DNA of 64,000 nt from Solirubrobacterales bacterium (lineage in GTDB: Bacteria; Actinomycetota; Thermoleophilia; Solirubrobacterales; Solirubrobacteraceae), in contig JBBSFX010000009.1 in NCBI GenBank assembly GCA_038254735.1, forward strand, positions 12,831-76,830, in the 5' to 3' direction. The notes under the pieces were generated by a model that did not search any database, was not told where the DNA came from, and was given only the letters and a program-made list of their open reading frames with translations. Below, piece by piece: positions 16,754-41,765 of the stretch (position 1 is its first letter; each line of letters begins with the position of its first letter). Position numbers and translations under genes: made by a program.

Positions 16754-16801
16754 GAGCGGGTCCGCCAGGACCCGCTCATACTCCGCCGAGATTTGCTGGC
16801 G
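16754..16801. repeat. C-GCCA-G loop palindrome plus truncated second copy
   Basis: GAGCGGGTCC-GCCA-GGACCCGCTC (16754-16777); GAGATTTGCTGGCG (16788-16801) is the exact reverse complement of 25809-25822. Confidence 0.85.
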
Positions 16802-16849
16802 TGGCCACACGAGGTGGCCCGATCGCGAGTGCCCGCCACCGGAAATAAC

Positions 16850-18121
16850 TTAGCCGACCCCGGCCACCGCATCCTGGAGCAGCCCGTCGGCGACGGCGCG
16901 CAGATCGACGTCGAGATGCCCACAGAGGACGTCGCGCAGCAGCGTCCGCAGGTGCTCGGCGAGCTCGTCGACCAGCCCGTCGGCGCCGGGGCCGGCCGGG
17001 GCGAGGCCGGCGATCACCGCGCGCTCGAGCGAGATCGCGTGCGCTACGCGCTCGGCCAGCGCGGCCCGGTGCTCCGGTGGGGCGCAGATCACCGCAAGCC
17101 GTTGGGCCAGGCGCCCGCTGGCCGGGCCCTCCGGCTCGAGCAGCGCCCGCAGGGCCAGGAGGTGGTCGGTCAGCGACTCGAAGGGAACGATCCGATCGCA
17201 GCCGAGCTCGTAGCGGCTGAGTGCCCACGCGACCTCGCCGCCGCTCGGGATGCGGCGGGCGATCAGGTTGCAGAACGCCCGCAGCTCATCCTCCTGCGCG
17301 ACCGGGATCAGCGTCACGAAGCGCGGGCGACCGGTGGCGCCGAAGGCGACCGGCCGCCACGAGCCGGCGTCCGCCCGCGACCACAGCATCGGGCCGAGCG
17401 CATAGCCGCCGCGCTCGAACAGCCGGATCGCCGTCAGCACCCGGCGAAAGCGGCCTCGAGCCTGCGAGATCGGCGGATGCGCCGCGCGCTCGTGGCTGGT
17501 CCTGAGCACCAGCAGCACATACGGCTGCTCGGTGCGGGGGTCGCCGGTTCCGGTCCCCCACACCGCCTCGGCCGGGGCGTCGGCGATCGCGTCACCGGGA
17601 ACCAGCGACAGGCCCTCGCCGAGCGGCAGCTCGCGCGTGCCCGGATCGAGCCCGATGCCGAGCAGCGGCGCGATCACGGTGGTCACGCAGCGGCCGTCGT
17701 AGAGCGCGTGCTCGAGCTCGTCGTAGGCGGCGGCGAAGCGCGCATCGTCGAGGCCGAACTCGCTGCGCTCCTCGAACACGCGCGCGAGGAAGCACCGCAG
17801 CACCGCGTCGGCTCGCTCCCGCGCCGCGGACGGGATCCGCTGTTCGCCACGCCGGCGTAGATAGGTTTCGGCGCCCTCGAGCTCGGCCAGCGCGCGGGAC
17901 ACCGCCGTATGACTCGGCAGCGCCGAGAGCACGCCGAGCCGCTCGCGGATGAACGAGCCGGTCAGCGGGCGGTAGCAGTACAGCGGGACGCGGCCGCGGC
18001 TGCCGTCGGTCTCGACGATCTCGAACGGGATCTCGACGCCACGCGCGGTCTCCGCGGTCAACTGCATCGACGAGTCGGCGGTGAACTCGAGCAGGCCCGC
18101 GTGCAGGGTGGCGTTGCGCAC
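16850..18121 (-). CDS. hypothetical protein with C-terminal HEPN-like (Apea-type) domain lacking the catalytic His
   Basis: ALSRYELG..FESLTDHLLALRALLE..RLAQRLAVI..R..ERAVIAG follows the HEPN pattern as I recall it. Confidence 0.65.
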   Translation of the reverse strand: MRNATLHAGLLEFTADSSMQLTAETARGVEIPFEIVETDGSRGRVPLYCYRPLTGSFIRERLGVLSALPSHTAVSRALAELEGAETYLRRRGEQRIPSAARERADAVLRCFLARVFEERSEFGLDDARFAAAYDELEHALYDGRCVTTVIAPLLGIGLDPGTRELPLGEGLSLVPGDAIADAPAEAVWGTGTGDPRTEQPYVLLVLRTSHERAAHPPISQARGRFRRVLTAIRLFERGGYALGPMLWSRADAGSWRPVAFGATGRPRFVTLIPVAQEDELRAFCNLIARRIPSGGEVAWALSRYELGCDRIVPFESLTDHLLALRALLEPEGPASGRLAQRLAVICAPPEHRAALAERVAHAISLERAVIAGLAPAGPGADGLVDELAEHLRTLLRDVLCGHLDVDLRAVADGLLQDAVAGVG

Positions 18122-18166
18122 GCTCGGAGGTTCTGCGCAGCCCGCGGCGATCCTGCCCCGCGGGCG

Positions 18167-18196
18167 GCGCGGTTGCGCGGTTGCGCGGTTGCGCGG
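18167..18196. repeat. 8-bp microsatellite (GCGCGGTT) x3.75, intergenic
   Basis: direct reading. Confidence 0.85.
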
Positions 18197-18287
18197 CGGG
18201 ACGCCCGGCGGCTAGCGGGCGGGCTGGACTCGGCGGCGACGCCGGTGAGCTCGTTCGCGGCGACCGCGATCCGCATCGCGCGACGGG

Positions 18288-18662
18288 TCAGGCGGCGGCG
18301 GCGGCGGGCGTCCGAGCCGCCGACTCGGCGCCGCAGGCGTCCCCGCCGGCCAGCCAGCGCCGGCCGTAGGTGCGCATGTCCTCGATCAGCGGGACCAGCG
18401 CCCGGCCCTTCTCGGTCAGCGCGTACTCGACCCGCGGCGGAACCTCCGGGAACGTCTGCCGGGCGACGACCCCCTCCTCCTCCAGCGCCCGCAGCCGCAG
18501 CGACAGCGTGCGCGGGCTGATGCCCTGGAGGGAGCGTTCGAGTTCGCAGAAGCGCGAGCGTCCGTCGGCGAGGTCGCGGATCAGCAGCAGCGTCCACTTG
18601 CCGCACACGATCTCCGCCGTGCGGCAGACGGGGCACGTGTCCTTGGCATCCAATCGATCCAT
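18288..18662 (-). CDS. HxlR family winged-helix transcriptional regulator
   Basis: CPV..GKWTLLLIRDL..RF.EL..GISPRTLS.RLR.LE..PPRVEYALTEKG. Confidence 0.93.
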   Translation of the reverse strand: MDRLDAKDTCPVCRTAEIVCGKWTLLLIRDLADGRSRFCELERSLQGISPRTLSLRLRALEEEGVVARQTFPEVPPRVEYALTEKGRALVPLIEDMRTYGRRWLAGGDACGAESAARTPAAAAA

Positions 18663-18754
18663 CTCAGAAGCCGAGTCTAGCGCAATGCTTCACCAACTGA
18701 AGCGGTGCCCTTCGGCCACTGGAGGATTTCGCAGCGGGAGATCTCTCCGGCTCG

Positions 18755-20014
18755 TCAGACCGGCACGCCGGGCGGGGGCGCCGAGGAGCGCGTGGCCGAG
18801 CTGATGCCCGGGGCGACCGACGGCGCGGGCGGTCGGGCGGTCGGAGCGGGCTCTCCGCCGGCTCCGGCATGGGGCCGGTTCAGCGTTCCCGGACCGTGGC
18901 CGAGGTCGGTGCCCCTGAAATCGTCCATCGAGGTGGAGGTGCGCCCGTCGGCGGCGACCAGCAGCTTGAAGTCGTGCGGGCTCGAGGCGACCCGGAGGGC
19001 GTCCGCCATCGTCACCCGGCCGGCTTGGTAGTGGTGGAGCAGCGCCTGGTCGAAGGTCTGCATCCCGTAATACTCGCCCTCGGCGATGACCTCGCGCAGG
19101 CGGCTCGTCTGCTCGGAGTCGAGGATCATGTCGCGGGCGCGGCCGGTCATCCGCAGGATCTCGCACACACACACCCGGCCGGAGCGGTCGGGGGTCTGCA
19201 CGAGCCGCTGGGAGACGACGCCCTTCAGCGTGCCGGCGAGCATCGCTCGGGCCTGGCTCTGCTCGTGCGGCGGGAAGAAGTCGATGATCCGGTTGATGCT
19301 CTCGGCCGCGTCCAGCGTGTGGACGGTCGAGAGCACGAGGTGGCCGGTCTCGGCCGCCGACAGAGCGGTGCGGACGGTCTCCTCGTCGCGCATCTCGCCG
19401 ATCAGGATCACGTCGGGGTCCTGGCGCAGCACGCGGCGCATGGCGCGGCTGAACGAGGCCGTGTCCATCCCCACCTCGCGCTGGTTGATGATCGAGCTGC
19501 GGTCGGCGTGCAGGTACTCGATCGGGTCCTCGATCGTGACGATGTGGCGAGCCTTGGTGGTGTTGATCTGGTCGATGATCGCGGCCAGCGTCGTCGACTT
19601 GCCCGAGCCCGTGGTGCCGGTGAGCAGGATCAGGCCGCGCTCCTCGTTGGCGAGGTCGCGGATCACCGCGGGCAGGCCGAGCTCGTCGACGGTGCGCACG
19701 GCGAACGGGATCGCGCGGGCGGCGATCGAGATCGAGCCGCGCTGGCGGAAGCCGTTGACACGGAAGCGGGCCATTCCGGGAACCGAGTAGGCGAAGTCGA
19801 CCTCGCCCTCGCGGTCGAACTCCTCGAGCTTGGCCGGATCGGTCAGCATCTGGCGCAGCACCCGCTCGGTGTCCTCGACGGACAGCGGCTCGTACTGCTG
19901 GATCGGCTCGAGCCGGCCGTGGGTGCGGACCAGCGGACGCGACCCGACTTTCAGATGGAGGTCAGAGCCCTCGGCTTGGACCAGCAGGCCGAGCGCCTCA
20001 TGCAGATCGAACAC
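18755..20014 (-). CDS. pilT: PilT/PilU family ATPase
   Basis: SDLHL, GTTGSGKSTT, IEDPIEY, QREVG, DPDVILIGEMRD, AETGHLV, GMQTFDQ. Confidence 0.92.
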   Translation of the reverse strand: MFDLHEALGLLVQAEGSDLHLKVGSRPLVRTHGRLEPIQQYEPLSVEDTERVLRQMLTDPAKLEEFDREGEVDFAYSVPGMARFRVNGFRQRGSISIAARAIPFAVRTVDELGLPAVIRDLANEERGLILLTGTTGSGKSTTLAAIIDQINTTKARHIVTIEDPIEYLHADRSSIINQREVGMDTASFSRAMRRVLRQDPDVILIGEMRDEETVRTALSAAETGHLVLSTVHTLDAAESINRIIDFFPPHEQSQARAMLAGTLKGVVSQRLVQTPDRSGRVCVCEILRMTGRARDMILDSEQTSRLREVIAEGEYYGMQTFDQALLHHYQAGRVTMADALRVASSPHDFKLLVAADGRTSTSMDDFRGTDLGHGPGTLNRPHAGAGGEPAPTARPPAPSVAPGISSATRSSAPPPGVPV

Positions 20015-20090
20015 GAACTATGTATCGGCCGCGGGCCGGAGCGCCTGAACCCGTCCCCGGAGCGACTGGACGCCGAGTGGACGTGGCGCG

Positions 20091-20115
20091 GGCCCGCGGG
20101 GCGAGCCCGCGGGCC
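20091..20115 (-). terminator. GC-rich hairpin downstream of rpoD
   Basis: GGCCCGCGGG-GCGAG-CCCGCGGGCC; no U-tract. Confidence 0.35.
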
Positions 20116-20143
20116 GGTGGGAAGCTCCCGCCGCTGCGCCTAC

Positions 20144-21244
20144 TCAGGCCACGTCGCGGAGCTTCTGCGCCTCGGCGAGGGACTGCAGCTTCTTCAGCGA
20201 CTGGTTCTCGATCTGGCGGATGCGCTCCCGCGTGACGTTGAAGGTGCGGCCGACCTCGTCGAGTGTGCGGGGATGCTCGCCGCCGAGGCCGTAGCGCAGC
20301 TCGAGGACGCGCCGCTCGCGGTAGGAGAGGTTCTCCAGCGCCTCGCGGAGCGCCTCCTTGGTGAGGATCTCCGCGGCCCGCTCGTATGGCGACTCCGCGC
20401 GCTCATCGGCGATGAACTGGCCGAACTCCGACTCCTCCTCGTCGCCGACCGGCTTCTCCAGCGAGACCGGGGCCTGCGCCGAGCGCTTGATCGACTCGAC
20501 CTCCTCGGGCTCGATGCCGGTCACCTCGGCGATCTCCTCGGCGGTCGGCTCGCGGCCGAGCTCGGTCACCAGCTTGCGCTCGGCGCGACCGATCTTGTTC
20601 AGCTTCTCGACCACGTGAACGGGAATCCGGATCGTCCGAGCCTTGTCGGCGAGCGCCCGCGCGATCGCCTGCCGGATCCACCACGTCGCGTAGGTGGAGA
20701 ACTTGAACCCCTTGCGGTAGTCGAACTTCTCCGCCGCGCGGACGAGCCCGAGCGTCCCCTCCTGGATCAGGTCGAGGAACGGCAGGCCCTGGTTGCGGTA
20801 GTTCTTGGCGATCGAGACGACGAGCCGGAGGTTCGATTCGACCATCTTCTGCTTCGCGTCGAGGTCACCGCGCTCGATGCGCTTGGCGAGATCAACTTCC
20901 TCCTGCGCCGTCAGCAGACGCACCTTGCCGATGTCCTTCAGGAACAGCTGAAGGGAATCGGTGGTCATGTCCGGCTTGAGATCCAGCGCCGTCTTGGCCT
21001 TACGGCGACCGCGCTTGTCCGGGGCGCGCTCGACCTCCGTCGCGGCCAGCGCCGGATCGACCTCCTCGACGAGCTCGATCTCCGCTCGCTCCAGGAAGCC
21101 GTGCAGCTCCTCGACGTCGGCCTCGTCGAGATCGAGCTCCGAAACCGCCGTCGCGATGTCGGCGTAGGTGAGCACGCCAAGCTGCTGCCCACGGTTGACG
21201 AGCCCCTTGACCTCTTCGAGTTCCTGCAGTTCCGCTACTGACAT
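20144..21244 (-). CDS. rpoD: RNA polymerase sigma-70 factor, RpoD/SigA type
   Basis: regions 1.1-4: [66 protein letters not shown]. Confidence 0.95.
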
Positions 21245-21354
21245 CTGATTCCGTTTCCGTCGCCAGGACCGACCCCTGGATAAGGCCGAGCTGATGGGAT
21301 CAATGAGTGGCAAAGGTGCGACAGGACGCACGCCCGCAACTCAAGCACGTTCAA

Positions 21355-21383
21355 ATTATAGACGCTATACTTTATGAAGTCAA
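21355..21383 (-). promoter_or_regulatory. near-consensus sigma-70 promoter of rpoD
   Basis: minus strand TTGACT-N17-TATAAT in a locally AT-rich patch. Confidence 0.85.
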
Positions 21384-21648
21384 GGCGCTTCAAGGACGCC
21401 AGATGTCGCCGGCTGGGCAACCGCACCACATTCGTGGTGCTCGAATTCCTATCTATACGTAGAACGTCGACAACCGTTTCAACTTGCGCCGCAATTCCGC
21501 GAATTCGCAGGGGTGCGCGAAGCGGGGCCTGTTCCTAGATCATTCCCACCATCGGCCGGTGTCGAACCTTTCTTCATCGTGAGGCGTCGTTCTGGCCCTC
21601 TCCACCGGCGAGCCCCCCGGCTGGACGACGACGGGACGGTGCGCGATC

Positions 21649-21987
21649 ATGTCGGGTTCGATGAGCGATCAACCCCCATCAGAGGTGCTCGGGGCGCTGC
21701 CCCGGTCCCGCCCGCACCGGCGCAGCGACAAGCGGGCGGCACGTCCGCGACCGGCCGCCGACGCTGTGGCCGCGTCCGCAGCCGCTGGGTCACGAGCCAC
21801 GCCGCCGATGCCGAAGCCCGTCCCGGCCGGCCGCGTGGCCGCGCAGAAGGCGGCCCAGCCGGAGCCCCGTGGCCGCACCGACGTGCTCGGCACGGCCGTC
21901 CAGGCGGCGGCGGAGCTGGCCGAGATCGGCCTGTCGGCGACCGCTCGGGCGATCCGCGGCGCGGTCGCCCGCCTCCCCCGCCCGTAG
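21649..21987 (+). CDS. hypothetical small protein
   Basis: C-terminal amphipathic helix LGTAVQAAAELAEIGLSATARAIRGAVARLP; start may be 21661. Confidence 0.6.
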   Translation: MSGSMSDQPPSEVLGALPRSRPHRRSDKRAARPRPAADAVAASAAAGSRATPPMPKPVPAGRVAAQKAAQPEPRGRTDVLGTAVQAAAELAEIGLSATARAIRGAVARLPRP

Positions 21988-22044
21988 GCGGCGACGGCCG
22001 GTCAGCCGCCCGAACCGGCGTCTCGTATACTTCGCCGTCTTCCA

Positions 22045-22176
22045 ACGCCGAACGGCTGCTCGCCCGCGAGCGGCCGACGGGGGACCCACTGCGGATGCCA
22101 TGTCCGCCGGGGCGAATCGGCTCCTCCTGGAGCCGTAGCGCGAATAGCGCGAGCCCGTCAGCTCACCCCGTAGGCA
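22045..22176 (+). promoter_or_regulatory. cyclic di-AMP (ydaO/yuaA) riboswitch
   Basis: GCCGAA..GGGGGACCCA..GGGGCGAATC..GCCCGTCAGCTCACCCCGTAGG; TATACT -10 at 22026-22031; upstream of a cell-wall enzyme. Confidence 0.88.
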
Positions 22177-22196
22177 CCAGGACCCAAGGGACCGGT

Positions 22197-22994
22197 GTGA
22201 TCCGACGCGTCAAACTCCATGCTGCTGCCGGCCTGCTCGTCACACTGAGCGCCCTGGTGGCGAGCACGTCGGCGCTCGCCGGGTCGGGCGGCGCCTCGCC
22301 GACCGCGGCATCCGGCGGATCCGGAGCCGGCGGCACCGGGGGCGGCTCCGGGAATCCGCTCGTCCACACCGGGAACAAAACGGTCACCGCCAGCGGCAGC
22401 GGCATCACCGTCTCCACGACGGCGTCCGCGCTGCTGCGCGACCAGCTCCAGTTCACCGGAAGCGTGCCCGGCTCCGACAGCGGTGCCGCGGTCGAGCTCG
22501 AGCGGCTCGGCCGCGAGACGAGCTGGACGTGGCAGCCGACCGCCCGGGTGAGCGTCAACCGCGACGGCAACTTTCGGGCGACCTGGACGACCGACCACAT
22601 CGGCCGGTTCGCGATCCGGGTCGTGATCTCGCGCGCCGGCGCCCGGGCCGCGGCGGCCTCCCCCCCGGTCTCGATCACCGTCTACCGCTCGTCCGTGGCC
22701 ACCTGGTACGGCCCCGGCTTCTTCGGCCGGCGGATGGCCTGCGGGGGCCGGCTGACCCGCGCCACGTTCGGGGTGGCCAACCGGCGCCTGCCCTGCGGCA
22801 CCGAGGTGGCGCTCTACTACCGGGGCCGCACGCTGACGGTGCCGGTCGTCGACCGCGGGCCCTACGCCAACGGGGCGGAGTGGGATCTGACCCAGGCGGC
22901 CAGCCGCGCGCTCGGGGTGGACGGCAAGGACACGATCGGCGCCGTCTCGCTGCCCGCCGCGACGCCGCCGAGCCGCGCCGTTCCGCACGGCTGA
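22197..22994 (+). CDS. secreted RlpA-like (DPBB) lytic transglycosylase family protein
   Basis: signal peptide; ATWYGPG..ACG..VANRRLPCGT..VPVVDRGPY..WDLT. Confidence 0.85.
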   Translation: MIRRVKLHAAAGLLVTLSALVASTSALAGSGGASPTAASGGSGAGGTGGGSGNPLVHTGNKTVTASGSGITVSTTASALLRDQLQFTGSVPGSDSGAAVELERLGRETSWTWQPTARVSVNRDGNFRATWTTDHIGRFAIRVVISRAGARAAAASPPVSITVYRSSVATWYGPGFFGRRMACGGRLTRATFGVANRRLPCGTEVALYYRGRTLTVPVVDRGPYANGAEWDLTQAASRALGVDGKDTIGAVSLPAATPPSRAVPHG

Positions 22995-23027
22995 GCTCGG
23001 GTCCCCTCGCGGGACCCGCTCACCCGC

Positions 23028-23966
23028 TCAGGACGGCCCGGGCGGTCCCACCGCCACGCCCGCCGCGCCGGCCGCGTAGCGCGCCTCCTCGGCGGCGTGG
23101 ATCAGTCCGCGGCCGCCGTCGGCGTCCTCGCCGAGGACCGCGATCCCGACGGCCACGGCCGGCGGCGCGCCGCGCCAGTCGGGCCCGGCACGCACCGCGG
23201 CGACGATCCGCTCCGCCAGCGCCCGCGCGTCGGCGCGATCGCGGCCGTGCGCGATCACCCAGGACCGCCGGCGATCCGCGTCGGCCACCACGTCTCCCGT
23301 GTCCAGGGCCGCGCAGACCGCATCGCGCAAGACGCCGAAGCCCGCCCACTCCGGTCCCTCGACCGCCAGCAACCGCTCGAGCTCGTCGAGCTCCACGAGC
23401 AGCAACGCCAGCGGCGCGCCGCGTCCGCGGGCGAGGGCGATCTCGTGCTCAAGCCGGGGCTCTGGCCCGTGCGGATCCGCCGCCGCGCCGCCGGGTCCCG
23501 AGCGGGCCGCGAATCCTCGCAGCGCCGCCGCTCGGACCGCCTCGAGTGCGACCGACAGGCGCTCGCCGAGCGCCCAGACGAGCTCAGGGTCCGGGTCGGG
23601 CGACTCGACGCGCAGGGCGCTCCAGATGACGCCGCGGAGCGCATCGAGCGCCGCCGACACCTCGTCGGCGCCGTGCGCGTCGACGAGCTCGCCGATCTCC
23701 GCCAGCAACGGCTCCAGCGCGCCTCCGGGCTGCAGCCGGGCGAGCTGCTCGTCGCACCGCAGGCCGCCGACGATTGCCTCGCAGATGCGCGGGGCCGATC
23801 CGACCAGCCCGCCGGCCAGGAGGCCCTCGGCGCGCTCGAGCGGACGCGCCTCGATGAGCTCGAGCAGCCAGCCCTTGCCGAGCCCGGCGCCACGATCGAG
23901 CAGCCGGTGCACCGGCGCGTCGGAGACCGGACGGGGGCGCCGGCGGCGGGGGGTCCGATCCTCCAT
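23028..23966 (-). CDS. degenerate GGDEF-like domain protein with helical N-terminal domain
   Basis: LEHEIALAR..PLALLLVELDEL..ARALAERI..VAVGIA..LIHAAEEA, with no GGDEF motif. Confidence 0.65.
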   Translation of the reverse strand: MEDRTPRRRRPRPVSDAPVHRLLDRGAGLGKGWLLELIEARPLERAEGLLAGGLVGSAPRICEAIVGGLRCDEQLARLQPGGALEPLLAEIGELVDAHGADEVSAALDALRGVIWSALRVESPDPDPELVWALGERLSVALEAVRAAALRGFAARSGPGGAAADPHGPEPRLEHEIALARGRGAPLALLLVELDELERLLAVEGPEWAGFGVLRDAVCAALDTGDVVADADRRRSWVIAHGRDRADARALAERIVAAVRAGPDWRGAPPAVAVGIAVLGEDADGGRGLIHAAEEARYAAGAAGVAVGPPGPS

Positions 23967-24780: not shown

Positions 24781-24781
24781 T

Positions 24782-25786
24782 CTAGCCGTAGCGCTCGCCG
24801 GAGTACACCCGCAGCTTCGAGCGGTCGTGGCGGGCGTTGACCCGCCGGACCGTGCCCGAGCGCGAGCGCATGACCAGCGACTCGGTGGTCGCGCTGCGGT
24901 TGCCCTGGTAGCGCACGCCCTGGAGGACGTCGCCGTCGGTGACGCCGGTGGCCGAGAAGAAGACGTCGTCGCCGGCCACCAGGTCGTCGGCGTTCAGCAC
25001 CCGCTCGAGGTCGTAGCCGGCGTCTCGCGCGGCCTGGCGCTCCTCGTTGCTCCGGGGCCACAGGCGGCCGAGCAGCTGGCCGCCGAGGCACTTGATCGCA
25101 GCGGCCGAGATCACGCCCTCCGGCGTCCCGCCGATGCCCCACAGCAGGTCGACGGCGGAGTTGTCGCTGACCGCCAGCAGCGCGGCGCTGACGTCGCCGT
25201 CGAGGATCAGGCGGACCCGCGCGCCGGCCTCGCGGACCTCGCGCATCATCTCGTGGTGGCGCTCGCGGTCGAGCATCACCACCATCACGTCACGGATCTC
25301 CCGGCCCTTGCGCTCGGCGATCAGCCGCAGCGTCTCGGGGAGCGGGCGGTCGAGGTCGAGCAGATCGGTGATTTCCGGGCCGCCGGCGATCTTCTCCATG
25401 TACACGCACGGGCCCGGGTCGAACATCGCGCCGCGCTCGGCCAGCGCGATCACCGCGAGCGCGCTCGGCATCCCCAGCGCGGTGAGGCGTGTGCCCTCCA
25501 GCGGGTCGACGGCGATGTCAACCTCGGGCGGCTCGCCGTCGCCGATCCGCTCACCGTTGTAGAGCATCGGCGCCTCGTCCTTCTCGCCCTCGCCGATCAC
25601 CACGATCCCGTCCATCGAGACGGTGTCGAGGACGATCCGCATCGCGTCGACGGCGGCCTGGTCGGCGCCCTCCTTGTCGCCGCGGCCGACCATCCGCGCC
25701 GCGGCCAGTGCGGCGGCCTCGGTCACGCGAACGAGTTCGAGGGCCAGGTTACGATCTGGCCGGTCGTGCTCTGGGGACGGGCTCAT
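24782..25786 (-). CDS. glpX: class II fructose-1,6-bisphosphatase
   Basis: VTEAAA, VVIGEGEKDEAPML, AVDPLEGT, DGDV, GIGGTPEGV, ATGVTDG. Confidence 0.96.
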   Translation of the reverse strand: MSPSPEHDRPDRNLALELVRVTEAAALAAARMVGRGDKEGADQAAVDAMRIVLDTVSMDGIVVIGEGEKDEAPMLYNGERIGDGEPPEVDIAVDPLEGTRLTALGMPSALAVIALAERGAMFDPGPCVYMEKIAGGPEITDLLDLDRPLPETLRLIAERKGREIRDVMVVMLDRERHHEMMREVREAGARVRLILDGDVSAALLAVSDNSAVDLLWGIGGTPEGVISAAAIKCLGGQLLGRLWPRSNEERQAARDAGYDLERVLNADDLVAGDDVFFSATGVTDGDVLQGVRYQGNRSATTESLVMRSRSGTVRRVNARHDRSKLRVYSGERYG

Positions 25787-25798
25787 CCGTCGCTCCCC

Positions 25799-25884
25799 GG
25801 GAGATTTGCGCCAGCAAATCTCCCCAGGGAACTTGCGCCAGCAAGTTCCCCGCTCCCCAGGAGATTTGCGCCAGCAAGTTCCCC
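25799..25884. repeat. three tandem palindromes with GCCA loop (REP/BIME-like)
   Basis: GGGAGATTTGC-GCCA-GCAAATCTCCC; GGGAACTTGC-GCCA-GCAAGTTCCC; chimeric GAGATTTGC-GCCA-GCAAGTTCC. Confidence 0.9.
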
Positions 25885-25886
25885 GC

Positions 25887-26348
25887 TCACAGCACGCCCG
25901 GGGGCTTGCGCCTCGTGGAGCTCTCCTGCGAGCGCCAGATCGCTCCGACGAGGATCAACATGCCGCCCAGCATAGCCACCCACCAGCCGTAGGAGACAGA
26001 GATCTGGCCGGGGGGCGAGCCGGGCTTGTCGATCACGCCGCGGAACACCACCAGGGTCAGCGCGGCCAGCGCGGTGACCGCCGTCAGCTCGCCGCGCGGC
26101 CACGACAGCGCGTGTCCGCGGACGATTATGTAGGCGAGGATCGCCGGGGCCAGCGCCGCCAGCAGCAGCAGGAAGCGCATCGCCTGCAGCGATGACCAGC
26201 CGGTGCAGGTGCCGCCGGGGCCCCTGCAGCCGCCCAGCACCGTGTAGCGGTCGCCCAGCGAGTACCAGGCGAGGAACAGCGAGACGCCGAGGAGTACCCC
26301 GCCGATCGCCGCCAGCAGCTCTCCTCGGTCCAGCTTGCCTAGCTCCAT
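25887..26348 (-). CDS. hypothetical membrane protein (4 TM)
   Basis: four hydrophobic segments; high GC3. Confidence 0.75.
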   Translation of the reverse strand: MELGKLDRGELLAAIGGVLLGVSLFLAWYSLGDRYTVLGGCRGPGGTCTGWSSLQAMRFLLLLAALAPAILAYIIVRGHALSWPRGELTAVTALAALTLVVFRGVIDKPGSPPGQISVSYGWWVAMLGGMLILVGAIWRSQESSTRRKPPGVL

Positions 26349-33873: not shown

Positions 33874-33892
33874 TGCCGACCCTTTCTCTTTC

Positions 33893-34028
33893 CGCGCCTA
33901 CGGGGTTAGCTGTCGGGCTCGCGCTGAAAGAGCTGCGCTACGTCGAAAGATTCGGCGATTCGCCCCAGAGGCCTATGGCCTCGGTGGGTCCCCCGTTCCT
34001 CGCAAGCAGAGTTGCGAGGATTCGGCTG
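33893..34028 (-). promoter_or_regulatory. cyclic di-AMP (ydaO/yuaA) riboswitch
   Basis: minus strand GCCGAATCC..GGAACGGGGGACCCA..GGGGCGAATC..GCCCGACAGCTAACCCCGTAGGC. Confidence 0.92.
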
Positions 34029-34132
34029 TATCTGGCACGGCAGAGTAACGGAGATGCAAGACGGATGTCGCGCGCAGGGTTATGGCAACCGAGCGTGTCG
34101 GGCAGACTCTCCGTATCGATAGCCTGCCCACG

Positions 34133-34468
34133 ATGTCCGGCGAATACACACCGAGTCAGGTCGCTGACCTTCAGGTCCGTGGCGAGATCGAGCTGATCGA
34201 CGTGCGCGCGCCCCACGAGCACGCCGCCGGTCGCATCGCCGGGGACCGGCTGATCGAGCTCGGCGAGCTCTCCGCGAAGGCCGCGACGATCGACCGCGAA
34301 CGCCCGATCGTGTTCTACTGCCGCAGCGGCAGCCGCTCGGCGATGGCCACCCAGGCCTTCCGCCAGGCCGGCTACGACGCGCACAACATGGCCGGCGGAC
34401 TGCTCCGCTGGCGCGACGAGAACCTGCCGATCGAGCCGGCCGACGGCCGCGTGGCGGACCCCGGGTAA
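34133..34468 (+). CDS. rhodanese-like domain protein
   Basis: LIDVR..HE..GRIAG, YCRSGSRS; TAGCCT 7 nt before ATG. Confidence 0.9.
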   Translation: MSGEYTPSQVADLQVRGEIELIDVRAPHEHAAGRIAGDRLIELGELSAKAATIDRERPIVFYCRSGSRSAMATQAFRQAGYDAHNMAGGLLRWRDENLPIEPADGRVADPG

Positions 34469-34487
34469 TCGGCTGGCGCCGATTACC
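34464..34487. repeat. C-GCCA-G loop palindrome overlapping the rhodanese stop codon
   Basis: GGTAATCGGC-TGGC-GCCGATTACC, perfect 10-bp arms. Confidence 0.85.
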
Positions 34488-34666
34488 TTGGGAGCATCGC
34501 CCTGGGGGGATTCTCCCGGGCGCTGAGGTGTTCGTCCCGCCCAGTCGGCCATCGTGGAGTCGCCGTCGGGCCGTCGCGTCCAGTCGGCCGCCGGGCGGCG
34601 ACTGCGTTTGAGGGATCGCCCAGGGGGGCGGTCCGGGGCGGGGGCAACTTCGTCAGGGAGCGCCGC

Positions 34667-34870: not shown

Positions 34871-34875
34871 TTGGA

Positions 34876-35066: not shown

Positions 35067-35480
35067 ATGGCAGACGAGCTTTCCATCGCCCGCGGCGTCG
35101 CGATCCCCCTACGGGAGATCACGATTCGCGCCTCTCGCTCCTCGGGGCCCGGCGGCCAGCACGCCAACGTGACGGCGTCGCGGATCGAGGCGAGCTTCGA
35201 CGTGGCCGCGTCGGCATCGCTGACCGACGCGCAGAAGCAGCGGATCATCTCCCGCAACGGGCCCCGCGTAGTCGCCGTGGCCCAGGACGCCCGCAGCCAG
35301 GCACGCAACCGCGAGCTGGCGCTCGACCGGCTGCAGCGGCGGCTGGCGGCAGCGCTGGCGGTGCCGCGAAGCCGGACGGCGACCCAGCCGACGCGATCGG
35401 CCCGCCAGCGCCGGCTCGAGGCCAAGCGCCGCCAGGCCGATCGCAAGCGCGAGCGCCGCCGCCCCGACACCGGCGAGTGA
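35067..35480 (+). CDS. arfB: alternative ribosome rescue peptidyl-tRNA hydrolase ArfB
   Basis: SGPGGQHAN (GGQ), RSQARNR, basic C-terminal tail. Confidence 0.93.
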   Translation: MADELSIARGVAIPLREITIRASRSSGPGGQHANVTASRIEASFDVAASASLTDAQKQRIISRNGPRVVAVAQDARSQARNRELALDRLQRRLAAALAVPRSRTATQPTRSARQRRLEAKRRQADRKRERRRPDTGE

Positions 35481-35540
35481 GCCGCCCCACCGCGGGCGCC
35501 CGACGCCCGCGCACGCGCGCGCGTACGTACAGTCGGGGCG

Positions 35541-35915
35541 ATGCGCTGGCTGGTCGACGGGATGAACGTGATCGGGACCCGCCCGGACAACTGGTGGCGG
35601 GACCGCGACGCGGCGATGCTCCGGCTCGTGGACCTGCTCGAGCGCTGGGTGGCGGCCGAGGGCGACGAGCTGACCGTCGTGTTCGAGCGCAAACCCTCGC
35701 CGCCGATCCGCTCCTCGGTGATCGAGGTGGCGCACGCGCCGAAGCCCAAGCGCGACGCCGCCGACGACGAGATCATCCGCCGCCTGCGGGCCGATCCACA
35801 GCCCGGGGCGGTCCGCGTGGTCACCTCCGACCGGTGGCTGGCCGACCGCGCGTGGGCGCTCGGGGCGTCGGTCGAGGGCGCCGAATCCTTCCGGAACCGG
35901 CTGGAAAACGAATAA
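35541..35915 (+). CDS. NYN (YacP-like) domain protein
   Basis: WLVDGMNV, VVFE, ADDEI, VVTSDR. Confidence 0.85.
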   Translation: MRWLVDGMNVIGTRPDNWWRDRDAAMLRLVDLLERWVAAEGDELTVVFERKPSPPIRSSVIEVAHAPKPKRDAADDEIIRRLRADPQPGAVRVVTSDRWLADRAWALGASVEGAESFRNRLENE

Positions 35916-35957
35916 ACCGGCCACTCCGACGTCGCAGCTTGCGACAATCAGACTCCA

Positions 35958-37991
35958 ATGTCCGACGAGACCCCCAGGCGCCCGGCCACGACGCGCGGCC
36001 GGCAAGGCGAGTCGCCCCCGCCCACGCCGGGGTGGAAGGTCACGCCGGCGCCCGACGGCCGCGGCGCTGAGAAGAAGCCGGCGCAGAAGTCCTGGGGGCC
36101 CAACCCGCGGTGGCTGGTGGCGCTCCTGGTCGTCGGCCTGCTGGCGCTCAACCTGTGGATCTCCTCGGAGGCACTGAAGCCCAACGCGCGGGTGCGGATC
36201 CCCTACAGCCCGAACTTCCTCACGCAGATCATGCACGGGAACGTGGCCGAGATCGCCTCCACCGGCGACGCGATCCAGGGGACCTTCCGGCAGGGCTACG
36301 ACTCCCAGGGCGGCTCGACGATCTACTTCTCGACCCAGGTCCCGTCGTTCGCCGACCACCAGACGCTGTCGCATCTGCTGATCAAGCAGGGCGTGACGAT
36401 CGACGCCCAGTCGACCAACCAGGGCCCGTCGTTCCTGACCAGCATCCTGTTCGGGTTCGGGCCGACGCTGCTGCTGGTGCTGCTGTTCGTGTTCCTGATG
36501 CGCCGCGCCGCGGCCGCCGGCGGCGGACCGGGCGGGCTGATGTCGTTCGGGCGCTCGCGGGCTCGCCGGGTTGAGGCCATCGATCAGCCGGTGACCTTCG
36601 AAGACGTGGCCGGGATCGACGAGGCCAAGGAGGAGCTGACCGAGATCGTCGACTTCCTCAAGAACCCCGACAAGTACCTCGCGCTGGGAGCCAAGATCCC
36701 CCGTGGCGTGCTGCTCAGCGGGCAGCCGGGGACCGGCAAGACGCTGCTGGCGCGCGCCGTCGCCGGCGAGGCCGGCGTGCCGTTCTTCCAGATGTCGGCC
36801 TCCGAGTTCGTCGAGATGATCGTCGGCGTCGGCGCCAGCCGCGTGCGCGACCTGTTCACGCAGGCCAAGGAGGCGGCCCCCGCGATCATCTTCATCGACG
36901 AGCTCGACGCCGTCGGGCGCTCGCGCTCCTCCGGCGGCCCGAACATCTCCGGCGGCCACGACGAGCGCGAGCAGACGCTCAACCAGATCCTCACCGAGAT
37001 GGACGGATTCGACCCGCGTAGCGGCGTGATCGTGCTCGGGGCGACGAACCGCCCGGAGATCCTCGACCCGGCGCTGCTGCGCCCCGGCCGCTTCGACCGC
37101 CGCGTCGTCGTACAGCCGCCCGACCGGGCCGGACGCGAGGCGATCCTCGCCGTGCACACGCGCTCGGTCCCGCTGGCTCCCGAGGTGACGCTCGGGGCGA
37201 TCGCCTCGACCACGCCGGGGATGGTCGGCGCCGACCTCGCCAACCTGGTCAACGAGGGCGCGTTGCTGGCCGCCCGGCGGGGCCACGACAAGGTCGGACA
37301 GGAGGACTTCACCGACGCGCTCGAGCGGATCGTGCTCGGCGCCGCGCGCAACGTGATGGTGTCCGAGGAGGATCGCAAGCGGACCGCCTACCACGAGGGC
37401 GGGCACGCACTGGTGGGCATGCTGACCGCCGGCGCCGACCCCGTGCGCAAGGTCTCGATCATCCCCCGCGGCCAGGCGCTCGGCGTCACCTTCTCAGCCC
37501 CGGACGCCGATCGCTTCAACTACGACCAACGCCACCTCGTAGCCCAGATCAAGGTCGCGCTGGGCGGCCGCGCCGCCGAGGAGATGGTGTTCGGCGACCT
37601 CACCACGGGCGCCGAGTCGGACATCCAGCAGCTGACCCGGATCGCCCGCTACATGGTCGGCCGGTGGGGCATGAGCCGAGCGATCGGACCGATCGCGGTG
37701 ATCCCCAGCGATGGCGCCGGGATGCTGTTCCCAGGCGTCTCGGAGACCTCGGAGGCGACGGCCCGGCTGATCGACGAGGAGGTGCGGCGGATCGTCGAGT
37801 CGGCCCACCAGGAGGTGCATGAGCTGCTGCGGCGCAACCGGCCCGCCCTCGACGAGCTCGTCGCCTCACTGCTCAAGCACGAGACGCTCGACGAGACCGA
37901 CGCGTATGCGGCCGCGGGGCTCACGCGCGCGTCGCAGAACGGCGAGCTGGCGGCCGGCGCCCCGGCGGCTCCGCCGCTGCTCGGCGGCTGA
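35958..37991 (+). CDS. ftsH: ATP-dependent zinc metalloprotease FtsH
   Basis: 2 [35 protein letters not shown]. Confidence 0.96.
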
Positions 37992-38065
37992 TCCGATCCG
38001 CAGGTTCGAGCGCGGCCAGCGACGGCCCACACGGGGCCACGGCCGGCCCGGCGGCTCGCGCGGGA

Positions 38066-38371
38066 TCAGTCGCCCAGGTGGGTCATCCGCGCCAGCGCCT
38101 CGTGGCACTCGACGACGCGCTGCTTGACCCGGTCCTTGTCGGGCCGGTCGTGGACCAGGTCCCACGTACGGTCGGCGATCTCGCGCGCCGTCTCGGGGGT
38201 CGCTCCCTCCCACAGCCGGTTGACCAGCTTCAGCTCGAAGTCGCAGATCTGGTCGGCCGGGTCGCCGGGGGCCAGACGCGGCAGCGCCTCGCCGGTCGTC
38301 TCCTTCCACATCCCGGTCGCCACGAGCAGTCGGTTGCGCAGCGTGATCTGGTCCATCAGGCCGAGAATCAT
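38066..38371 (-). CDS. hypothetical protein
   Basis: helical, high-GC3 ORF; start uncertain (38356-38410). Confidence 0.65.
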   Translation of the reverse strand: MILGLMDQITLRNRLLVATGMWKETTGEALPRLAPGDPADQICDFELKLVNRLWEGATPETAREIADRTWDLVHDRPDKDRVKQRVVECHEALARMTHLGD

Positions 38372-38406
38372 CCTAGATACCGGCGTGCAGCGTAGCGAGG
38401 TCGGGC

Positions 38407-38910
38407 TCACCCGCCGAGTCGCCGGCGGATCCGCGCGAAAGTGCTCGTCAGCGCGTCGCTGGCGACGCCGGTGACGCGGGCCAGGGAGTTGGCGGCGGCG
38501 ACCTCGAGCTCGGGGCGCCGCGCCTGCCGGGCGATCACGACCAGGCGCTGATGATAGCCCCCGGCGATGCTGACCAGCCGACGATGCAGCACGGCGATGC
38601 CGAGGGGCGGGTGAATCGCCGCCAGCCCGACGGCGAGGCGATCGATGGCCCGCGCCAGCAGCCCGATCGTGTGCGACAGCGCCGCCGGGGTGCGGGGGCG
38701 CGCCGGAAGCGCCGCCTCGGCACGACCGAGCCGCGACTGCGCTGCGCTCAGCTGCTCGAGGTAGCGGGCGGCGACGTCGCGCCGGGGCCGCGGACCCGCG
38801 CCCGCCTGCCCGCCGTGCGCGAGCAGCGTCCGGCTACCCGCGCAGCCGGCCGCGAGGATCGCCACGGCGAGCAGCATCAGCGGCAGCGATCGGTGACGGG
38901 CGCTCGACAT
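38407..38910 (-). CDS. hypothetical lipoprotein
   Basis: LLAVAILAAGC lipobox followed by helical repeats. Confidence 0.6.
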   Translation of the reverse strand: MSSARHRSLPLMLLAVAILAAGCAGSRTLLAHGGQAGAGPRPRRDVAARYLEQLSAAQSRLGRAEAALPARPRTPAALSHTIGLLARAIDRLAVGLAAIHPPLGIAVLHRRLVSIAGGYHQRLVVIARQARRPELEVAAANSLARVTGVASDALTSTFARIRRRLGG

Positions 38911-39032
38911 CACGGCCGTTGTAGCGCATCGCGCCGGCGCGCTGGTCAACGTCCGGAGTGGCGGGCGGTCAGCCGGCGATGGCGCCGATCGGGACCGACT
39001 CGGCGGTGCGAAGCCTGGCGGTCAGTCGCGGG

Positions 39033-41765
39033 TCAGCCCGAGCGCGCGGCGCCGGGCGCCGGCAGCCGCTGGACGAGGCCGGCCGTGGGGGCGAACAGGT
39101 CCCCCGATTCCGCCACCCGCGCCAGCACCTGGTCGGTGTCGAAGGTGAGCAGCCCGGGGTCCCGCTGCTCGCGGCAGCGCTCGACCTCCTCCCAGCGCAG
39201 CGGCGTCGACACCGTCGGCCGCGAGCGAGCGCGCACCGAATACACGGTGACCGTCGTCTTGTGCCGGTCGTTCTGGCTCCAGTCGACGAGCACGCGACCG
39301 GGGCGCAGGGTCTTGGTCATCCGGGAGACGACGAGCTGCGGCAGCCGCTGCTCGAGCAGCTCGGCGATCTGGCGGGCGAACGGCTTGGTTGCCTGGTAGC
39401 TGCCCGCGTCGTTCAGCGGGAGGTACACCTGCATCCCCTTGGAGCCCGAGGTCTTGGCCCACGTCTCGAGCCCGAGCCGGGCGAACAGCCCGCACAGCAG
39501 CAGCGCCACCTCGCAGCACTCGACGAGGCCGGCCGGGGGGCCCGGGTCGAGATCGAAGGCGAGCATCGTCGGGCTCTCCGGCGCCGCAGCGAGCGCGAGC
39601 GACGTGTGGAGCTCGAGATCGGCCAGGTTGGCCAGCCAGATCAGCGTCGGGCGGTCCTGGGCGAGCGTGTAGCGGACGTCGCCGATCTGCGCCGTGTCGA
39701 CCCACTCGGGGCGGTGCGAGGGCGACTGCTTCTCGTAGAAGTACGGGTGATCGATGCCGTTCGGGTAGCGCTTGAGCGTCAGCGGGCGGTCACGCAGGTG
39801 CGGCAGCACGGCGGGCGCGACCCGGGCGTAGTAGGCGATCAGATCGCCCTTGGTGAACCCGGTCTCTGGAAATAGGACCTTGTCCCAGTTGCTCAGCTTC
39901 AGCCGCCGACCCTCGGTGGCGACGTTCAGATCGCCGCCGGGGAGCCGCTCGACCTCGTCGAACAGCGCTTCCGGGGTGGCCGGGGCGGTCCGAACGTCGG
40001 TGGCGCCTCGGGCCGGGTCCGCGGAGGGCGCGGCCGCGGGCGGCGGCGCCTCGCGCACGACCTCCACGGCCGGCTTGTCGGTGCGCAGGCCCTTGAACGA
40101 CGGCGCCCGCATCGCCCCGTCGGCGGTCCACTCGGTGAACTCGACCTCGGCCACCAGCTCGGGCGCCACGAACACCGCCTCGCGGGACAGCTTGGGCGCC
40201 CGCGCGAACGGGCACTCGGCGACTCGCAGCGGCGCCAGCCGCGCCGCCAGGTCGTCGAGCGTGTGCTCGGTGAAGCCGGTGCCGACGCGCCCGGCGTACA
40301 CGAGCTCGCCGGACTCGAAGTGGCCCATCAGCAGCGCCCCGATTCGCTCCTGGCGGCGCCCCTCGCCGGGCAGCCACCCGGCGATCACCAGCTCCTGGCG
40401 CTGGGTGTGCTTGATCTTCAGCCACGCGCCGTTGCGGCGCCCCGGCTCGTAGCGGGAGTTCAGGCGCTTGGCGACGATTCCCTCGAGCCCCTGGGCGCGG
40501 GTCGCCTCGAGCAGCCGCTCGCCGTCGCCGGCGTGGGCCGCGGGCACCCGCCACGCGGGGCCGCCGAGCTCCAGCGACTCGAGCCGGCGGCGGCGCTCGG
40601 CGTACTCGAGCTCCATCAGCGGGATGCCGTCGAGGTACAGCAGGTCGAAGATCGCATAGATGACCGGGGTGCCGGCGGCCCGGCGCCTGACCGCCGAGGC
40701 CGAGGTCACGTGCATGCGCTTCTGCAACAGGCCGAAGCTGGGGCGCCCGTCCGGGCCGAAGGCGACGATCTCGCCATCGAGCACCGCCTCTCGCATTCCC
40801 AGGTCGCCGAGCAGGCCGCGGAGCTCGGGGTAACCGTCGGTGATCTCGCGCAGGTTCCGGCTCTCCAGCCGCAGCCGCCCGGGCTTGACGTAGGCGAGCG
40901 CCCGGACCCCGTCCCACTTGACCTCGAACGACCACTGCTCGGCGGGCCGCGGGACCTGCGCCACCGGCGCGGCCCGGGCCAGCATCGGCGCCAAGCGCTC
41001 GGGCATCGGCCGCCGAGCTGGTTCCTCGGGCGGGTCCATCCGGTGGATCATCCAGTCGTCCTTGCCGTCCTTGCCGGCCTTGCCGGCCTTGCCGTCCCTG
41101 CCGGCCTTGCCGTCCCTGCCGTCCCTGCCGTCCCTGCCGTCCCTGCCGTCCCTGCCGTCCTTGCCGTCTTTGCCGGCCCTGCCGGCCTTGCCGGCCTTGC
41201 CGCCGATCGGGAACAGGCCGTAGCGGCCGTGCAGACGCTCGCCGTGGAAGGTCACCTCGACCTTGTCGGAGTCGAACTTGTGCGTCTCGTAGGTGCCGTG
41301 GTCCCAGATCCGCATCGTCCCGGCGCCATAGGAGCCCTTGGGGATCTCGCCCTCGAACTCGAGGTACTCGATCGGGTGGTCCTCGGTATGGACGGCGAGC
41401 CGGTTCTCGGAGCGGTCGGCCGGGATCCCGTTGGGGATCGCCCACGACACGGCGACGCCGTCGTGCTCGAGCCGCAGGTCCCAGTGCAGGCGGGTCGCGT
41501 GGTGCTCCTGGACGACGAACCGGGGGCGACTTCGTCGCCCTTGCGAGGTGGCCTGGCGGGGCCGGCTTCGCCGGCCTTGGGAGTTGGCCTGGCGGCCAAC
41601 ATCCCCGCCAACGTCGCGGGGCCCGCTTCGCGATCCTTCGGAGTTGGCCTGGCGGCCAACCTCCCGGGAGCCGCCGGCGCCGCTCGGGGCGCCGGCGCCG
41701 GCGGGCTCCGCGGTGGCGTCGAAATCGCGCTTGCGTCGGTAGGTGTCGAGCCTGTCGGCGGGCAT
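39033..41765 (-). CDS. ligD: multifunctional NHEJ protein LigD (phosphoesterase-ligase-polymerase)
   Basis: PE: VVQEHHATRLHWDLRLE; LIG: FEVKWDG, LDGE, GLEG, WLKIK, RAPSF; POL: KRYPNG, FDLDPG, KTSGSKG, DWSQN. Confidence 0.94.
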   Translation of the reverse strand: MPADRLDTYRRKRDFDATAEPAGAGAPSGAGGSREVGRQANSEGSRSGPRDVGGDVGRQANSQGRRSRPRQATSQGRRSRPRFVVQEHHATRLHWDLRLEHDGVAVSWAIPNGIPADRSENRLAVHTEDHPIEYLEFEGEIPKGSYGAGTMRIWDHGTYETHKFDSDKVEVTFHGERLHGRYGLFPIGGKAGKAGRAGKDGKDGRDGRDGRDGRDGRDGKAGRDGKAGKAGKDGKDDWMIHRMDPPEEPARRPMPERLAPMLARAAPVAQVPRPAEQWSFEVKWDGVRALAYVKPGRLRLESRNLREITDGYPELRGLLGDLGMREAVLDGEIVAFGPDGRPSFGLLQKRMHVTSASAVRRRAAGTPVIYAIFDLLYLDGIPLMELEYAERRRRLESLELGGPAWRVPAAHAGDGERLLEATRAQGLEGIVAKRLNSRYEPGRRNGAWLKIKHTQRQELVIAGWLPGEGRRQERIGALLMGHFESGELVYAGRVGTGFTEHTLDDLAARLAPLRVAECPFARAPKLSREAVFVAPELVAEVEFTEWTADGAMRAPSFKGLRTDKPAVEVVREAPPPAAAPSADPARGATDVRTAPATPEALFDEVERLPGGDLNVATEGRRLKLSNWDKVLFPETGFTKGDLIAYYARVAPAVLPHLRDRPLTLKRYPNGIDHPYFYEKQSPSHRPEWVDTAQIGDVRYTLAQDRPTLIWLANLADLELHTSLALAAAPESPTMLAFDLDPGPPAGLVECCEVALLLCGLFARLGLETWAKTSGSKGMQVYLPLNDAGSYQATKPFARQIAELLEQRLPQLVVSRMTKTLRPGRVLVDWSQNDRHKTTVTVYSVRARSRPTVSTPLRWEEVERCREQRDPGLLTFDTDQVLARVAESGDLFAPTAGLVQRLPAPGAARSG
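41058..41201. repeat. 9-bp VNTR encoding 16 G-[KR]-[AD] triplets inside LigD
   Basis: GKA GKA GRA GKD GKD GRD x5 GKA GRD GKA GKA GKD GKD. Confidence 0.95.
41522..41665. repeat. three composite palindromic units inserted in frame in ligD
   Basis: C-TTC-G triloop hairpins (41524-41540, 41560-41576) alternate with GTTGGCC-TGGC-GGCCAAC hairpins (41583-41600, 41643-41660); protein VGRQANS x2 and RQATS. Confidence 0.85.

Follow-up and report, generated by a model that had tools for sequence, protein, structure and literature searches.

Mycobacterial interspersed repetitive units, or MIRUs, are repeats of 40-100 bp located in polycistronic transcripts. They have filled and empty sites, short direct repeats and internal inverted repeats, and their open reading frames (ORFs) overlap the adjacent genes (PMC3184786). 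These and the other MIRU properties used for comparison below are taken from PMC12548453 and PMC3184786, which summarize Supply et al. 1997. MIRUs have hitherto been treated as a mycobacterial peculiarity, and the mechanism of their mobility is still unknown. Repetitive extragenic palindromes (REPs) and the bacterial interspersed mosaic elements (BIMEs) are recognized by a GT(A/G)G head and by clusters in alternating orientation (PMC2817692). Here we describe a dispersed family of hairpins found in a 64-kb stretch (72% G+C) of a Solirubrobacterales genome (assembly GCA_038254735.1, contig JBBSFX010000009.1, positions 12,831 to 76,830), the whole of which is called the window in the following. 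The homologues of its glpX and ligD genes assign the window to Solirubrobacteraceae. The basic unit of the family is approximately 55-70 nt long and comprises two hairpins on the same strand, a variable one (B) and then a conserved one (A), followed by a short tail. The hairpins probably represent a short non-autonomous repeat family of the Solirubrobacteraceae, MIRU-like in behavior, which is inserted at gene boundaries and preserves translational coupling.

An earlier note on this stretch had drawn attention to palindromes closing on C-GCCA-G at four loci. Inspection of the window sequence confirmed such hairpins at all four, including the chimeric one and the one that overlaps a stop codon (Table 1). 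There are 126 CGCCAG/CTGGCG hexamers in the window, and the complementarity of their flanks is distributed bimodally, with 9-10 complementary bases around four of them, six around two and no more than four around the others. Hairpin counts were compared with 200 second-order Markov simulations of the window. Perfect hairpins with a stem of at least 7 bp and a 4-nt loop are, taken together, ordinary (20 observed, simulated mean 16). Those with a GCCA/TGGC loop number six against a simulated average of 0.2 (maximum 3), and with stems of at least 10 bp four against 0.01. The suspected excess of this loop over controls is thus found within the window. When hairpins are picked by the stem alone (perfect, at least 10 bp, loops of 3-5 nt), the GCCA/TGGC loop is present in four of five. 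The fifth, GGCCCGCGGG-GCGAG-CCCGCGGGCC at 20091-20115, sits 3' of a sigma-70 gene and resembles the ordinary terminator type, with no clear T-run. The 14-nt match linking 16788-16801 to 25809-25822 is exact, as had been reported, and its orientation is inverted; with up to one mismatch allowed, two matches are seen for this link where 0.05 are expected. The hairpins were ascertained by their complementarity and therefore covariation counts were not used as evidence. The predicted RNA stability of single hairpins is from -15 to -21 kcal/mol.

Table 1. Members of the hairpin family and associated features in the window
Feature	Position	Strand	Description
Locus 1, single hairpin	16754-16777	-	10-bp arms, GCCA loop; GAGCGGGTC-C(UGGC)G-GACCCGCTC; -20.6 kcal/mol
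Half A copy (5' arm and loop)	16788-16801	+	Opposite orientation to 16754-16777
Locus 2, hairpin array	25787-25886	-	100 nt; fills the gap from the 153-aa gene (stop 25887-25889) to glpX (ATG 25784-25786)
Bridging mini-ORF	25783-25890	-	35 codons, VSGELAGANLLGSGELAGASSLGRFAGANLPGSDG*; GTG overlaps upstream TGA (GTGA), TGA overlaps glpX ATG (ATGA)
Locus 2, first unit, A hairpin	25799-25824	-	11-bp stem; GGGAGATTTG-C(UGGC)G-CAAATCTCCC; -17.7 kcal/mol; conserved member of the family
Locus 2, second unit, B-type hairpin	25827-25850	-	10-bp stem; GGGAACTTG-C(UGGC)G-CAAGTTCCC; loop 27 nt from A loop, as in all other arrays
Locus 2, third unit, chimeric	25860-25884	-	One arm B, one arm A: the 5' arm comes from unit 1, the 3' arm from unit 2 (repeat family D18)
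Locus 3, stop-codon-bearing B hairpin	34464-34487	+	10-bp stem, TGGC on + strand; G-TAA-TCGG-CTGGCG-CCGATTACC
ligD, two-hairpin subtype	41520-41668	+	2.6-fold repeat, 60- and 36-nt periods (D7); antisense to ligD
ligD hairpins	41583-41600 and 41643-41660		7-bp stems

The array in front of glpX is the best resolved member of the family, and comparison with relatives identifies it as an insertion of 100 nt. Five relatives with glpX genes 88-91% identical to that of the window were compared together with 10-kb flanks, 105 kb in total. In all five, the 153-159-aa gene shares a 4-nt overlap (GTGA or ATGA) with glpX, no long hairpin with the family loop occurs in these 105 kb, and the window has 100 extra nucleotides at the junction. 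Consequently, the presence/absence comparison proposed earlier gives an empty site in 5/5 relatives and a filled one in the window. The insert is bounded by TGAGC on both sides (...ctgTGAGC[array]...ggaTGAGCccg), so that the left side keeps the old GTGA and the right side gains a new ATGA, and the N-terminus of GlpX has the same length as in the relatives. Metagenome contigs aligned with the array come from many related strains and show only that relatives skip it. In the order of the mRNA strand, the array consists of the chimeric unit (33 nt), the B-type unit (27 nt), the A unit and a 15-nt tail, and its RNA fold has a predicted energy of -71 kcal/mol (z = -4.0). The chimeric unit looks like a duplicated B-A pair from which 27 nt were lost by a loop-to-loop deletion, and a comparable deletion is seen in protein P0242.

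The A hairpin, GGGAGATTTG-CTGGCG-CAAATCTCCC, starts 2-5 nt after the B hairpin, and both close on C-UGGC-G. With the loop read as CTGGCG, the 5' arms of the family are GGGAGATTTG, GGGAACTTG, GGGAAACTCG, GGAAATCG, GGGGTCGG, GGTAATCGG and GTAATCGC. They have all diverged from a single sequence, GG(G)A(A/G)(A/C)T(T/C)(T)G. Hence the earlier observation that the stems differ from locus to locus and yet stay complementary does not reflect independent covariation, but divergence from one sequence. Constancy of the loop and closing pair holds throughout the window, while in relatives the loop is sometimes CCGGCG or TCCGGCG. Family-like stems with other loops are present at L007 6631-6657 (GGGAGATCGC-TCCGGCG-GCGATCTCCC), at L036 17477-17498 (GTAATCGG-CCGGCG-CCGACTAC) and, in a 23S-5S spacer, at L026 465-485 (GGAGAAATC-TGC-GATTTCTCC), so that outside the window the loop is not strictly constant (loci of other genomes are numbered with the prefix L). 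A covariance model built on the B-A pair was searched against the collected sequences. It matches the window array with 84 bits (25796-25852), locus 3 with 49.5 bits (34462-34520) and the ligD repeats of the window with 25.6 and 16.8 bits. Elsewhere it matches a unit after a sigma-70 gene in L036 (46 bits), the ligD unit of L039 (33.6 bits) and a second unit of L007 (31.8 bits).

Copies in other genomes were sought by scanning one genome per prokaryotic species with a degenerate A/B pattern, which yielded 29 loci. Four non-coding matches belong to Solirubrobacterales metagenome-assembled genomes (L007, L012, L025 and L026). Matches in L009, L013, L014 and L022 (Solirubrobacterales and Rubrobacter) turned out to be a coding motif of metallophosphoesterases and were rejected as family members. 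The exact A hairpin was found at only three loci in a metagenome scan, L031 alone being from Solirubrobacterales, and L043 was added by a protein search with a profile of the mini-ORF described below. The 22-mer of the A hairpin is identical in L007, L012, L025, L026, L031 and L043, and in all six the B hairpin precedes it by exactly 27 nt, loop to loop, on the same strand and with the same loop. None of these A-hairpin loci is syntenic with the window, which speaks against a conserved regulator of glpX. Three of the genomes (L007, L031 and L043) share a single insertion site, the pheS-pheT junction, where L031 carries one unit, L007 two units of 54 nt and L043 two units of 69 nt. Identity among the three is 88-91% for the hairpin pair and 81-91% for the flanking coding DNA. 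The tail from the A hairpin to the pheT start is 30 nt long in each, but only 56-69% identical, and therefore the hairpins and the tail length are maintained, whereas the sequence of the tail drifts. No match to the hairpin repeat was found in viral contigs. Rfam reported only c-di-AMP riboswitches and rRNA in the window and 13 loci (gathering thresholds) and in a permissive scan of the array, with nothing at the hairpins, and the hairpin sequence occurs in the searchable literature only in unrelated primers. The family can thus still be considered undescribed, as the earlier note had it.

The pairing of two hairpins in front of genes raises the question of cis-regulatory RNA, in which the hairpins would be ANTAR-like regulator sites controlling downstream translation or termination. 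Known ANTAR targets are two adjoining stem-loops near a start codon, with hexaloops that have A1 and G4 in both (PMC8164766). There are points of likeness: two stem-loops are joined by a linker of 2-5 nt, each loop is formally six-membered with G at position 4, the distance from the end of the hairpins to a GGGGAG Shine-Dalgarno-like run and a start codon is 9-30 nt, and the hairpins are better conserved than the tail. However, loop position 1 is C in all copies instead of the conserved A, and C1 pairs with G6, leaving a tetraloop on long stems of 8-12 bp. Moreover, genes as unrelated as glpX and pheT, among others, have an A hairpin of identical sequence, the orthologous loci of relatives are empty and the sites thus not conserved, and copies are also located after stop codons and antisense within ligD. 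A regulatory role of this kind is accordingly considered improbable.

The position and orientation of the copies follow the genes. The mRNA strand of the neighboring genes has CUGGCG at 8/8 independent intergenic places, and the strand of the element within the window switches with that of the genes (loci 1 and 2 vs locus 3), which argues against purely replication-oriented placement. When the position relative to stop codons was examined, as had been suggested, stop/start junctions or stop codons were found to be the preferred sites; at four junctions the left flank is TGA plus 0-4 nt. A mini-ORF runs through the element in one frame at three independent stop/start junctions, namely locus 2 of the window, pheS-pheT (L007, L031 and L043) and L025, encoding a peptide with ...IGRFAGANLPG..., and the loop is read as GCU-GGC-GCx (AGA) at five independent loci. 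The GTG or ATG start of the mini-ORF overlaps the upstream stop codon and its terminal TGA overlaps the downstream start codon, giving GTGA...ATGA in the window and in L025, and GTGA or TGATG...TGATG in L031, L043 and L007. One mini-ORF (279-437) was annotated by the JGI gene caller, the gene before it reaching to 282 and the gene after it beginning at 437 (4-nt and 1-nt overlaps). In L026 the same frame prolongs the upstream ORF, which ends in GTGA, instead of forming a separate mini-ORF. The repeat periods (27, 33, 54, 60 and 69 nt) are all multiples of three.

These features bear on the idea, put forward in the earlier note, that the palindromes are REP-like. In that case they would be extragenic palindromes which a REP-associated tyrosine transposase (RAYT, an HUH Y1 enzyme), encoded elsewhere in the genome, recognizes as hairpins of single-stranded DNA and spreads. 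Like REPs and BIMEs, the repeats are short, palindromic, extragenic and dispersed, can form stable mRNA or single-stranded DNA hairpins and may occur in regularly spaced clusters (PMC2817692). They have filled and empty sites, and a conserved single-stranded loop suits structure-specific recognition. Site-specific and orientation-specific insertion is typical of IS200/IS605-type enzymes, and hairpins lying on the same strand and flanked by TGA (plus 0-4 nt, as above) resemble its outcome. Nevertheless, there is no GT(A/G)G head, the A hairpin being preceded in six loci by CTGG, ATTG, GTGG or GTTG. Tandem copies are all direct, with 27-nt loop spacing, and do not alternate; the sole inverted neighbor is the half copy at 16788. 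REPs lack codon phasing, which is present here, and the copy number is apparently low, while REP/BIME families run to more than 100 copies per genome. Their cognate RAYT or IS200/605-type TnpA gene often has the repeats at its flanks. No transposase was detected in the window by Pfam scans, in line with what had been stated earlier, no RAYT or TnpA was seen in the 64 kb or in the other fetched loci, and no transposase lies beside hairpin-bearing repeats in Chloroflexota L011 or Ruminiclostridium L002. The RAYT survey makes no mention of Actinobacteria (PMC2817692). The notion of a REP-like family therefore stands as far as dispersal, the conserved loop and inserted DNA are concerned, whereas head and alternating orientation do not agree with it, and spread by a RAYT seems unlikely.

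In some copies the hairpin itself carries a stop codon. The B hairpin of locus 3 supplies the stop codon TAA (34466-34468) of a rhodanese gene, and the locus continues to 34520 through a copy of A that has decayed (34490-34517) and through GGGCGC, the shared tail. The same variant, with TAA in its 5' arm (G TAA TCG GCT GGC GCC GAT TAC), supplies the stop of three unrelated genes, those of the rhodanese in the window, a gene in L012 and sigma-70 in L036, always in one frame (*SAGADY or *SPGGDY). The sigma-70 stop codon of L036 (gcg TAA TCGG...) is at the same time the start of the two-hairpin unit, while in five relatives the sigma-70 protein (...RDVA*) ends with TAG or TGA and the unit is missing.

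Such positions, together with the stability of the hairpins, could point to ordinary intrinsic terminators or 3'-end stabilizers of independent origin which merely share a favored tetraloop. Loci 1 and 3 and the L036 copy are indeed 3' of stop codons, and in other phyla isolated hairpins with the same loop are found beside T-runs or a tRNA end (L008, L017 and L019). No window copy is followed by a T-tract, however, arrays are situated inside operons at overlapping gene junctions, and L036 has a separate canonical T-tract terminator approximately 20 nt past the two-hairpin unit. As the stems and flanks are homologous between loci, the hairpins are not of independent origin. An intrinsic terminator would be a G+C-rich hairpin that closes a transcription unit and is followed by a U-tract. 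The copies thus do not look like one-off terminators, an outcome that the earlier note had named among those refuting its idea of a family, and we regard this explanation as very improbable.

The hairpin of locus 1 (16754-16777) lies 3' of a 423-aa gene and in the 5' region of a small gene for a 74-aa Cys-rich protein. At the position aligned with it, L037 has GAGCTC and lacks the inner 16-18 nt, the alignment being only moderately reliable. In relatives, a conserved element of approximately 90 nt (GCTCCCTACTCGGTCCC..GGGG.CGGGAGTGT..) is found upstream of the Cys-rich gene, at about 19850-19960 in L035 and about 20690-20800 in L037 and L038. The window has no such element at the corresponding place, where the 16754 hairpin region stands instead.

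Insertion, position, orientation, frame, periodicity, copy-number variation and the conservation of hairpins over the tail were all observed directly. The placement on stop/start codons, the sense orientation, the periods in multiples of three and the bridging mini-ORF make MIRU, and not REP, the closest analogue. In both cases units of tens of nucleotides, often in tandem, are intercistronic in operons and co-oriented with the genes; short intercistronic units of this kind are seen at locus 2 of the window and in L007/L031/L043, L012, L025 and L026. Both have an internal ORF that overlaps, at its two ends, the neighboring genes' stop and start codons (-4 spacing), filled and empty sites, short direct repeats (here TGAGC) and varying copy number (here 1-2 units), and both are without a known transposase. 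The present family differs in belonging to Solirubrobacterales, in having two near-perfect hairpins with an invariant loop, and in that one variant carries a TAA stop. Since the host is of another order and not a Mycobacterium, the element is regarded as an analogue of MIRU and not as a member, the likeness being one of behavior.

A MIRU-like repeat of this type would insert in sense orientation at gene boundaries, preferring the overlapping stop/start codons (GTGA, ATGA, TGATG) of co-transcribed genes, or else a stop codon. Its arrays would expand and contract by multiples of 3 nt with a single mini-ORF frame running through them, and a mini-ORF extending from the upstream stop codon to the downstream start codon would leave the downstream gene translationally coupled. 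Ribosomes translating the putative mini-ORF could melt the hairpins, so that the bridging frame plausibly keeps the downstream start accessible. The invariant loop and the A stem may serve as a handle for a protein that copies, homogenizes, maintains or binds the element, and the RNA hairpins might stabilize the upstream part of the transcript in the fashion of REPs.

Several observations weigh against the MIRU-like interpretation. The family is rare, as no more than four GTDB species representatives and a single metagenome contig of Solirubrobacterales were found to have the exact A hairpin, and the copy density in relatives is 0-1 per 21 kb, compared with four loci in the 64-kb window. Only five proteins among 5.8 billion resemble the mini-ORF with E<=10: three come from pheS-pheT, P0244 is an unrelated repeat with 46% GC, and the fifth is P0245. 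The element has no stop in any of its three frames, whichever way it is read. An open frame alone is therefore weak evidence, and the weight is placed on the consistent frame and the overlaps at junctions. The boundaries of the element are fuzzy and the apparent direct repeats vary (TGAGC, GCTGATG, TGAA, TGA); they may belong to the element itself or result from selection. The 16754 hairpin looks like an insertion of 16-18 nt, which is below transposon size. No mobilizing enzyme was found in the window or in any fetched locus.

Within ligD the family is represented by a subtype that reads on the + strand as [stem-TTC-stem] TTGGGAG [TTGGC-CTGGCG-GCCAA]. The repeats are translated in frame as (S)R(E/D)VGRQANSQGRRSRPR within the N-terminal linker of LigD. 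The window protein exceeds some 120 homologues by about 90 aa, and the linker repeat makes up a part of this surplus. The same subtype is found at L007 6610-6660, 9 nt ahead of an ATGA junction, as [GCCGAC-TTC-GTCGGC] ATT [GGGAGATCGC-TCCGGCG-GCGATCTCCC]. The ligD of L039, which is 71% identical, has a single repeat copy whose first hairpin is compensated (GGCAAAC...GTTTGCC vs GGCCGGC...GCCGGCC), and in the closest LigD, that of L040, the copy is decayed. Because it is also present in the L039 gene, the ligD element is an old in-frame member of the family, and only the 60-nt duplication is recent and specific to the window. In this respect the family resembles the Rickettsia palindromic elements and comparable in-frame palindromes inserted in genes (PMC3184786): in LigD the copies are translated in frame into a linker peptide, in L026 the upstream ORF gains a C-terminal extension from its copy, and the TAA variant takes the place of the native stop. 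It differs from them in its far shorter units, located mostly at gene junctions rather than inside domains. LigD of the window contains, in addition, a 9-nt repeat in about 25 copies (41025-41248, - strand) encoding a collagen-like G-K/R-D/A tract of approximately 45 aa between the phosphoesterase and ligase domains, which is absent from the aligned homologues.

A hairpin that equals the A hairpin of Solirubrobacterales fully or very nearly, G(A/G)AATTTG-CTGGCG-CAAAT(T/C)TC, occurs in Alphaproteobacteria. This 22-mer was found in seven species representatives (L006, L010, L015, L016, L018, L028 and L030) and in two metagenome contigs (L032 and L033), the latter two matching the A sequence exactly. 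The 22-mer stands between hairpin modules, CCCCTCCCC and GGGGAGGG, and its sites are non-homologous. The hairpin of L010 and L030 lies directly 5' of a start codon, where GGGGAGGG forms a Shine-Dalgarno-like run. On inspection, the orientation of the 22-mer relative to neighboring ORFs looked mixed. A BLAST search gave no plasmid match to the module. With uniform base composition about four pattern matches are expected, and the sharing of the 22-mer by two repeat families of two phyla is thus unlikely to be due to chance. One could speculate that the loop serves as recognition code for a structure-specific enzyme not yet described, such as an HUH-type single-strand nuclease, which pastes a minimal two-hairpin cassette directly 3' of TGA or TAA, and that this system or its hairpin is common to Actinomycetota and Alphaproteobacteria. 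This is a doubtful but conceivable scenario. If it is true, the sites 3' of stop codons would be a safe harbor in which operons keep working, and the cassette would consist of left-end and right-end hairpins.

Taken as MIRU-like, the repeats constitute a second family of this behavior, apparently unrelated in sequence to MIRUs and originating from a distant uncultured actinobacterial order. Both families combine insertion on a stop/start overlap with a bridging frame, which suggests a general route by which small repeats could enter and colonize operons without breaking translational coupling. Two hairpins with one invariant loop and one invariant stem also offer a concrete handle for finding the protein that recognizes them. 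Annotation is affected as well, through spurious small "hypothetical proteins" and altered gene ends such as the rhodanese and sigma-70 stops and the ligD linker.

The same genome has a second, non-hairpin, MIRU-like translational-coupling chain, which supports coupling repeats being common in the lineage. It is located at 48727-48826 (- strand) between a gene for a pstB-like ABC ATPase (48825-50426) and phoU (48036-48716) and consists of two 50-nt tandem units. Each unit encodes a 17-codon mini-ORF, VSV[A/G]AMRRFGSLPGKFG*, whose GTG overlaps the preceding TGA (GTGA), and the period of 50 nt results when the 4-nt overlap is subtracted from the 54-nt ORF. The last codons of the upstream gene (GKFG*) recur in the unit.

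Finally, the window harbors two c-di-AMP (ydaO-type) riboswitches, at 22036-22191 (+ strand) and 33881-34037 (- strand). They precede a DPBB/lytic-transglycosylase-like gene and a gene with a peptidoglycan-binding domain.

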